Positions 22,931 through 23,023 of a stretch of 32,956 nt of DNA are shown in pieces (the first letter of the stretch is position 1; every line of letters starts with the position of its first letter). Both the position numbers and the translations under genes were made by a program. Source of the DNA: Squatina squatina. Lineage: Eukaryota. The stretch is taken from assembly GCA_031763465.1 (NCBI GenBank), contig JARFOE010000036.1:427986-460941 (forward strand), written 5' to 3'. The notes beneath the pieces were generated by a model. That model saw only the letters and a program-made list of their open reading frames with translations. It was not told where the DNA came from and made no database searches.

Positions 22931-23023
22931 GGCTTTTTTAAACGCACTGTACAGAATAACAAATGCTACACCTGTGTAGAAAACCAGAACTGTCAGATCG
23001 ACAAAACTCAAAGGAAACGGTGC
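22931..23023 (+). CDS. NR5A/Ftz-F1 family nuclear receptor, second zinc-finger exon (cut by gap); candidate NR5A5
   Basis: tattttag acceptor, phase 0. [31 protein letters not shown] is the NR5A signature (NR5A2: [31 protein letters not shown]). This frame is not in the ORF track. Confidence 0.9.

Follow-up and report, generated by a model that had tools for sequence, protein, structure and literature searches.

The exon at positions 22931-23023 of the window (the whole 32,956-nucleotide stretch of Squatina squatina DNA analysed here, C36:427986-460941) very probably belongs to a third gene for an NR5A nuclear receptor in sharks and rays, a gene that is likely orthologous to teleost nr5a5 (ff1c) and is probably a product of the early vertebrate genome duplications. 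A third NR5A gene common to sharks, rays, chimaera, sturgeon and teleosts would put at least three NR5A receptors in the jawed ancestor, and would leave mammals with a reduced set of two. The features of the exon and of the assembly piece that holds it are the following.

22931..23023, plus strand: the 5' 93 bases of the NR5A second-zinc-finger exon, identified by Pfam, PDB and orthologue identity.
22910..22930, plus strand: phase-0 splice acceptor, with pyrimidine tract and AG; NR5A2 of the same genome has the same intron position.
22782..22930, plus strand: intron flank kept in relatives, where run contigs X1, X17 and X23 align over intron and exon.
22964..22966, plus strand: Cys codon TGC, compared with relatives' runs and orthologues.
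22373..23023, no strand: 651-base assembly piece holding the exon, with a 100-N gap on either side (gap map).

The window translation gives 31 codons of an NR5A second zinc finger on the plus strand. The phase-0 acceptor and the NR5A exon proposed in a preliminary description are borne out, with a pyrimidine-rich tract, an AG at 22929-22930, and a zf-C4 match (Pfam, E=1.9e-8). The DNA-binding domains of NR5A2 (E=1.7e-15, 29/31 residues identical) and SF-1 (E=2.3e-13) are at the top of the 45 PDB matches for the exon, and the match to NR5A is far beyond chance. The frame has no ATG, which would explain why the exon is absent from the track of open reading frames. The exon ends at a 100-N gap starting at 23024, and its NR5A2 counterpart in the same genome has 47 codons, so the final 16 codons appear to be lost in the gap. 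The intron and exon alignments of relatives' contigs begin at 22782 (X1), 22838 (X17) and 22855 (X23), and this conserved flank ties the exon to an orthologous locus. No sequencing run with the exon is recorded as RNA, and all shares are at or below 0.07. In one putative-RNA run a deeper contig begins at the acceptor; it is not counted as evidence here, since contigs are silent on RNA level and ends.

By itself the exon is weakly diagnostic, as it is also identical at 29/31 residues to human and chimaera NR5A2. The identity is 30/31 with the third gene of Heptranchias (P0496), versus 27/31 with shark NR5A2 and 27/31 with shark NR5A1; the latter has three fixed differences besides the Cys. Searched against its own genome (1.52 Gb in 1,152,659 contigs), the exon has 21 matches, of which one only is close (87%, on C176). 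The second-finger exon on C176 shows 100% identity with Leucoraja, Heterodontus and Scyliorhinus torazame NR5A2, and it agrees with the window exon at 76/93 bases. Using a full-length relative and tblastn, we find five NR5A2 exons on C176 (95-100% identical to Heterodontus NR5A2) and one unplaced. The same search finds two NR5A1 exons on C46, 50-80 kb from NR6A1 and 96-100% identical to shark NR5A1, and one unplaced; the NR5A1 second-finger exon is not found in this assembly. The third gene is neither the NR5A2 locus, which is on C176, nor the tandem neighbour of NR6A1, which is NR5A1 on C46.

The third NR5A set in this genome includes the window exon and the unplaced contigs C1021073, C337823 and C831186. 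C1021073 has the first finger, identical at 37/38 residues to the Heptranchias orthologue and ending in phase 0 before a GT. C337823 has a ligand-binding exon and the start of the last exon, and C831186 has the end of the last exon. When compared with 11 reference proteins, the six third-gene fragments, of which the window exon is one, all have their top score with the third clade, and from these comparisons we infer that the window exon and the three unplaced contigs are one gene. In total, 179 of about 499 residues are recovered. The hinge/FTZ-F1 exon and the fifth coding exon are not found in this assembly, where NR5A1 also is without several exons.

The gene had been described as hidden, which overstates the case. 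It is present in RefSeq/UniRef as full-length models named 'NR5A2-like', with cluster members in 16 elasmobranch species. A search with the sawshark protein P0119 gives, among the best 120 of 1292 matches, 11 elasmobranch clusters at 80-100% identity, and then NR5A2 at about 71%. We identify the models XP_067829116.1 (Heptranchias), XP_038640912.1 (Scyliorhinus canicula) and XP_055520084.1 (Leucoraja) as the same gene as the window exon. Compared with the fragments of this genome, the elasmobranch models are identical at 30/31 residues of the exon and at 159-168 of 179 overall (ten proteins covering them); they have Arg or His where this genome has Cys, and five other changes are private to this genome. 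Callorhinchus milii and Acipenser sinensis have partial members of the third clade or of nr5a5. In Scyliorhinus torazame and Mustelus asterias, each of the three NR5A paralogues has a sequence of its own, the three differing in length, which excludes a tandem arrangement. A skate cluster includes two complete intronless third-gene ORFs on public contigs of 1.7-2.3 kb, which imply spliced transcripts in a relative. The ESM Atlas does not discriminate, as NR5A2 and NR5A5 clusters are both at 0.98-0.99. Shark NR5A1/SF-1 is also named 'NR5A2-like' by RefSeq in most species listed (P0166 cluster), and the use of one name for both shark SF-1 and the third gene can mislead transcriptome studies of shark gonad and liver.

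The Cys at exon position 12 had been taken as an extra Cys that marks the paralogue, with KCY where NR5A2 has KRY and NR5A1 has KHY. The comparison holds for human NR5A2 (KRY) and human SF-1 (KHY), but Arg is also what shark NR5A1 has at this site. The Cys does not serve to mark the paralogue. It is a private change, present in 1/447 NR5A-type proteins with the motif (the query itself) and in 0/7 relatives' runs, where position 22964 is C in six and A in one. The site takes 16 different residues among the 447 proteins; it is Arg in shark orthologues, His in ray orthologues, and Arg, His or Asn across relatives. In the Arg codon CGC, a C-to-T change on either strand of the CpG would give Cys or His, and the Cys is likely a recent C-to-T change at a CpG Arg codon, private to this genome. 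A role for the Cys as a fifth zinc ligand is rejected, since it is not among the zinc ligands of the finger. The Cys carries no weight for paralogue identity.

The 179 recovered residues, in six fragments, include no stop, and the splice sites are canonical. Relative to 16 orthologues, the third gene of this genome has 6 private changes in those 179 residues, 4 of them with a BLOSUM62 score of -2 or less, versus a single one in each of the genome's other NR5A genes (426 residues compared for NR5A2, 125 for NR5A1). One of the 6 changes replaces a Phe kept in 263/264 full-length vertebrate NR5A proteins. Together with the hinge and fifth coding exon missing from the assembly, these counts are what one would expect if this were an NR5A5 orthologue decaying in this species, the Cys and the five other private changes reflecting relaxed selection or a young pseudogene. 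We consider such decay improbable. Besides the open frames and intact splice sites, the orthologues have 0-8 private changes in the same columns, with 2/16 species exceeding this genome; only 1/82 highly conserved columns is changed; NR5A1 too lacks several exons in this 1.15-million-contig assembly; and base errors could account for some differences. Seen beside the orthologues, the excess of private changes is suggestive without being exceptional, and possible sources of the changes are relaxed selection or base errors. The changes, which are in C337823 (L073), in C831186 (L064) and at window position 22964, include two conserved Phe residues of the ligand-binding domain.

The third clade and teleost nr5a5 form one group in 3/3 trees. 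The support is SH-aLRT 93 in a quick tree (39 rows, 473 columns), 93/97 in an LG+G4 tree (26 rows, 341 domain columns), and 95/96 in an LG+C20+F+G4 PMSF tree (25 rows). The quick tree took in the hinge and misplaced Ciona; Ciona and Dimorphilus were left out afterwards, and the partial chimaera row is also out of the LG+C20 tree. The two later trees use 341 conserved columns and 25-26 rows hand-picked from about 500 proteins. In the LG+G4 tree, teleost nr5a5 has the sturgeon fragment as its sister (97/99) and the chimaera fragment is with the elasmobranchs (82/82). The trees thus support two earlier proposals, that the exon comes from a chondrichthyan NR5A5, and that the paralogue dates to the gnathostome ancestor, being older than the split of cartilaginous and bony fishes. 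In AU tests, grouping the third gene with shark NR5A2 only is rejected (p=0.0008), and a shark-specific duplication of NR5A2 is rejected with it. Grouping it with all NR5A2 gives p=0.093 under LG+G4, where it is not rejected, and p=0.017 under the mixture; grouping it with NR5A1 is rejected by neither model (p=0.096 under LG+G4, p=0.057 under the mixture). Judged from these sequence comparisons, the third gene is firmly older than the divergence of sharks and bony fishes; its orthology to teleost nr5a5 is likely, being favoured while not every alternative is rejected.

In 7/341 columns the third clade and nr5a5 are united against NR5A1/2, and in 4 of these the outgroups are mostly on the NR5A1/2 side. 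Five columns unite the third clade with NR5A2, all with the human residue, and 1-2 unite nr5a5 with NR5A1 or NR5A2. The stem of teleost nr5a5 is long, and its identity to the shark third gene is 54-55%, versus 69-70% for NR5A2. In two teleost gene models (P0396, P0466), a SOUL heme-binding gene is fused to nr5a5, and SOUL is likely the upstream neighbour of nr5a5 in percomorphs. On C36 there is no SOUL match; the three matches in this genome are all elsewhere. The long teleost stem, the lack of SOUL on C36, and the AU alternatives that survive under LG+G4 (and, for NR5A1, under the mixture) would all fit a history in which the shark third gene and teleost nr5a5 are different ancient NR5A ohnologues, a third and a fourth, reciprocally lost; the shark gene would then not be NR5A5, while still being as old as the jawed-vertebrate ancestor. 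We give this history little credence: it requires two reciprocal losses, the grouping with nr5a5 recurs in every tree, the sturgeon fragment bridges the shark gene and teleost nr5a5, and seven common columns stand against the 1-2 that tie nr5a5 to NR5A1 or NR5A2. Two hagfish NR5A genes (P0027, P0474) are outside the three jawed-vertebrate clades or unresolved with respect to them.

That the exon is instead NR5A2 or NR5A1 sequence placed here in error, or a duplicate of NR5A2 peculiar to sharks, is scarcely credible: its 29/31 identity to human and chimaera NR5A2, its placement by scaffolding, and the NR5A1 second-finger exon missing elsewhere in the assembly would allow it, but NR5A2 has its own exon on C176 that matches other sharks' NR5A2 and agrees with the window exon at those 76/93 bases only, shark NR5A1 differs at 4/31 residues (27/31 identical, versus 30/31 for the third gene), and the AU test (p=0.0008) rejects the duplication.

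As for tetrapods, Kuo in 2005 reportedly described ff1c as having no mammalian counterpart. A joint profile of the third clade and nr5a5 finds no tetrapod member of the nr5a5 clade among the best 120 of 1385 matches (104 nr5a5-like, 10 third clade, 6 NR5A2). In the available portion of one report, mammals have two NR5A genes, neither of which is a counterpart to ff1c (PMC1298332).

Having identified the exon as part of a likely NR5A5 gene, we describe its surroundings. The annotated neighbours are the following.

14232..14522, minus strand: last exon of an olfactomedin-domain gene (Pfam OLF, E=9e-31).
19157..19384, minus strand: C-terminal exon of a fibrillar collagen (Pfam COLFI, E=2e-22).
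28013..31932, plus strand: short-chain dehydrogenase, four exons (Pfam adh_short, E=4e-4 for the first exon).
32501..32644, plus strand: first exon of a second DR1/NC2-beta-like gene (Pfam CBFD_NFYB_HMF).

All 12 fragments of the window that were compared with Pfam match a family, and they represent 11 different genes in 33 kb: by domain, DnaJ, GIPC, GPCR, amidase, C2 protein, rotamase, olfactomedin, fibrillar collagen, the NR5A exon, dehydrogenase and a histone-fold protein. Beyond the window, C36 has a calcium channel, TRM1 and DCAF15 upstream, and a TOCA-family gene downstream. We take the olfactomedin gene to be OLFM2-like, the collagen COL5A3-like and the dehydrogenase RDH8-like, and the window with its C36 flank presumably corresponds to the human 19p13 set of DNAJB1, GIPC1, PTGER1, PGLYRP2, RASAL3, PIN1, OLFM2, COL5A3, RDH8, CACNA1A, TRMT1 and TRIP10. 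In the accessible part of one paper, OLFM2, COL5A3 and RDH8 are near DNM2 on human chromosome 19 (PMC3572173). The sections available of a paper covering col5a3, rdh8 and olfm2 give no position for nr5a5.

The earlier assignment of the exon to a COL5A3-RDH8 interval stands in part. Olfactomedin, fibrillar-collagen and dehydrogenase domains do flank the exon, but the placement rests on scaffolding. The window has 23 gaps, 19 of them of exactly 100 N. The exon is in a 651-base piece bounded by such gaps, so contiguous sequence does not link it to its neighbours, and its position between collagen and dehydrogenase is scaffold order, which is second-hand evidence. Fixed-size gaps and one or few exons per gene suggest an ordering on a reference genome. 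The same reference-scaffolded look, with 11 genes in 33 kb, makes distances and adjacency in the window untrustworthy for other findings too.

Like C36, the NR5A2 scaffold C176 carries a DR1 copy, a TOCA-family gene and two olfactomedin-domain genes, and both placements share the scaffolding caveat. The TOCA-family gene on C176 is 39 kb from the DR1 copy, on the same strand. A search of this genome for a fibrillar-collagen paralogue returned the query only, and the 200 kb flank of NR5A2 on C176 gave no gene names. On the basis of the paralogous neighbours on the NR5A2 scaffold, the third NR5A gene likely comes from the early vertebrate genome duplications.

The second DR1/NC2-beta-like gene (L051:3440-3600) is between the dehydrogenase and the TOCA-family gene. 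Its paralogue at C176:12600511-12600645 (12.60 Mb) is 87% identical and is also beside a TOCA-family gene. To our knowledge humans have one DR1 only, and the second DR1-like gene may be another retained ohnologue. The match of its first exon stops after about 48 codons, has no GT donor and meets a stop; the copy in the window may be broken or misassembled.

In general, NR5A receptors bind an extended half-site as monomers, activate sterol and lipid genes, and are modulated by phospholipids. Both fingers and an FTZ-F1 box with two substitutions are present in the orthologues of the third gene, as are the AF-2 Glu and residues equivalent to LRH-1 G421, Y516 and K520. The C337823 and C831186 fragments of this genome keep the Gly, Tyr and Lys and the AF-2, assuming that they are one gene. 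In the accessible text of a structural source, G421, Y516 and K520 of LRH-1 are contacts at the pocket's mouth with phospholipid (PMC10407255). The Heptranchias protein differs from human LRH-1 at 5 of the 26 pocket and AF-2 positions compared. By analogy with the known receptors, the shark third receptor is predicted to bind an extended half-site as a monomer through its two C4 fingers and FTZ-F1 box. Its pocket, in which the equivalents of G421, Y516 and K520 are preserved, would be occupied by a phospholipid, and its intact AF-2 would serve to activate sterol and lipid genes. Its expression may overlap with that of LRH-1 in liver and gut, after the pattern of zebrafish ff1c, which is highest in liver and intestine (PMC1298332, in the portion available). 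For nr5a5 in cichlids, the part consulted of another paper gives expression in brain and ovary (PMC3773371).

Among the closest known genes is teleost nr5a5/ff1c (zebrafish NP_999944.2, AAK19303.1), which is sister to the shark gene in the three trees and has the same domain layout. The two have common residues in the FTZ-F1 box, the helix 3 region, helix 9 and the C-terminus. The shark protein evolves far more slowly, its identity to shark NR5A2 being 69-70% and that of zebrafish nr5a5 55%. Unlike zebrafish nr5a5, which has Arg at the K520 equivalent, it retains the Lys, and its second zinc finger is still NR5A2-like. The closest solved structures, at about 70% identity, are those of human NR5A2/LRH-1 (PDB 2A66, 1YUC, 3TX7). 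Beyond the 29/31 residues of the exon, the shark gene has in common with LRH-1 the equivalents of G421, Y516, K520 and AF-2 E534. It differs from NR5A2/LRH-1 in being a separate gene on another scaffold, with 68-70% overall identity, and in the changes M>L and R>Q in the FTZ-F1 box, A420S, A431T and Y519L. With NR5A1/SF-1 it shares the family, the exon structure and the pocket residues; NR5A1 adjoins NR6A1 on C46, and the third gene is 67-68% identical to it. At about 70% identity to LRH-1, the shark copy would offer ancestral reconstruction of SF-1/LRH-1 lipid sensing a cleaner comparison point than the fast-evolving teleost gene does.

The gene is thus known already, in that databases model it under the vague name 'NR5A2-like'. 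In the literature searched we found no report that names NR5A5 in sharks or other cartilaginous fishes. Fonseca et al. in 2020 reportedly surveyed the nuclear receptors of cartilaginous fishes, and that survey may well list NR5A5, which we think somewhat more probable than its omission. It is common for sharks to have kept an ohnologue that mammals lost; given that pattern and an existing survey of chondrichthyan nuclear receptors, the result would be of little surprise to a specialist. A broader reading, which would not yet be in print, puts the pieces together. All cartilaginous fishes would keep NR5A5 as a slow, LRH-1-like third ohnologue with an intact phospholipid pocket, in a 19p13-type block with a second DR1. 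On this view teleost nr5a5 would be what rapid divergence has left of the gene, the third ancestral vertebrate NR5A would be best represented by the shark protein, and decay would be starting in this species. We put this combination forward tentatively, as a possible account that is doubtful when taken as a whole.

Other elements of the region were noted in passing. The last exon of an amidase of the peptidoglycan-recognition type is at 7877-8171 on the plus strand, between prostanoid receptor and RasGAP exons; we take it to be PGLYRP2-like. Another short-chain dehydrogenase exon (L050:4399-4665, C36 at about 422.4 kb), presumably DHRS7-like, lies a short way upstream of the window, with DCAF15 on one side and the DnaJ gene on the other. 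Long tandem repeats are found at 5697-6849, 17815-18733 and 19485-21118 of the window. Among them are a roughly 30-base unit akin to the end of a common shark SINE, and minisatellites rich in CT or in AG, which yield long spurious ORFs.
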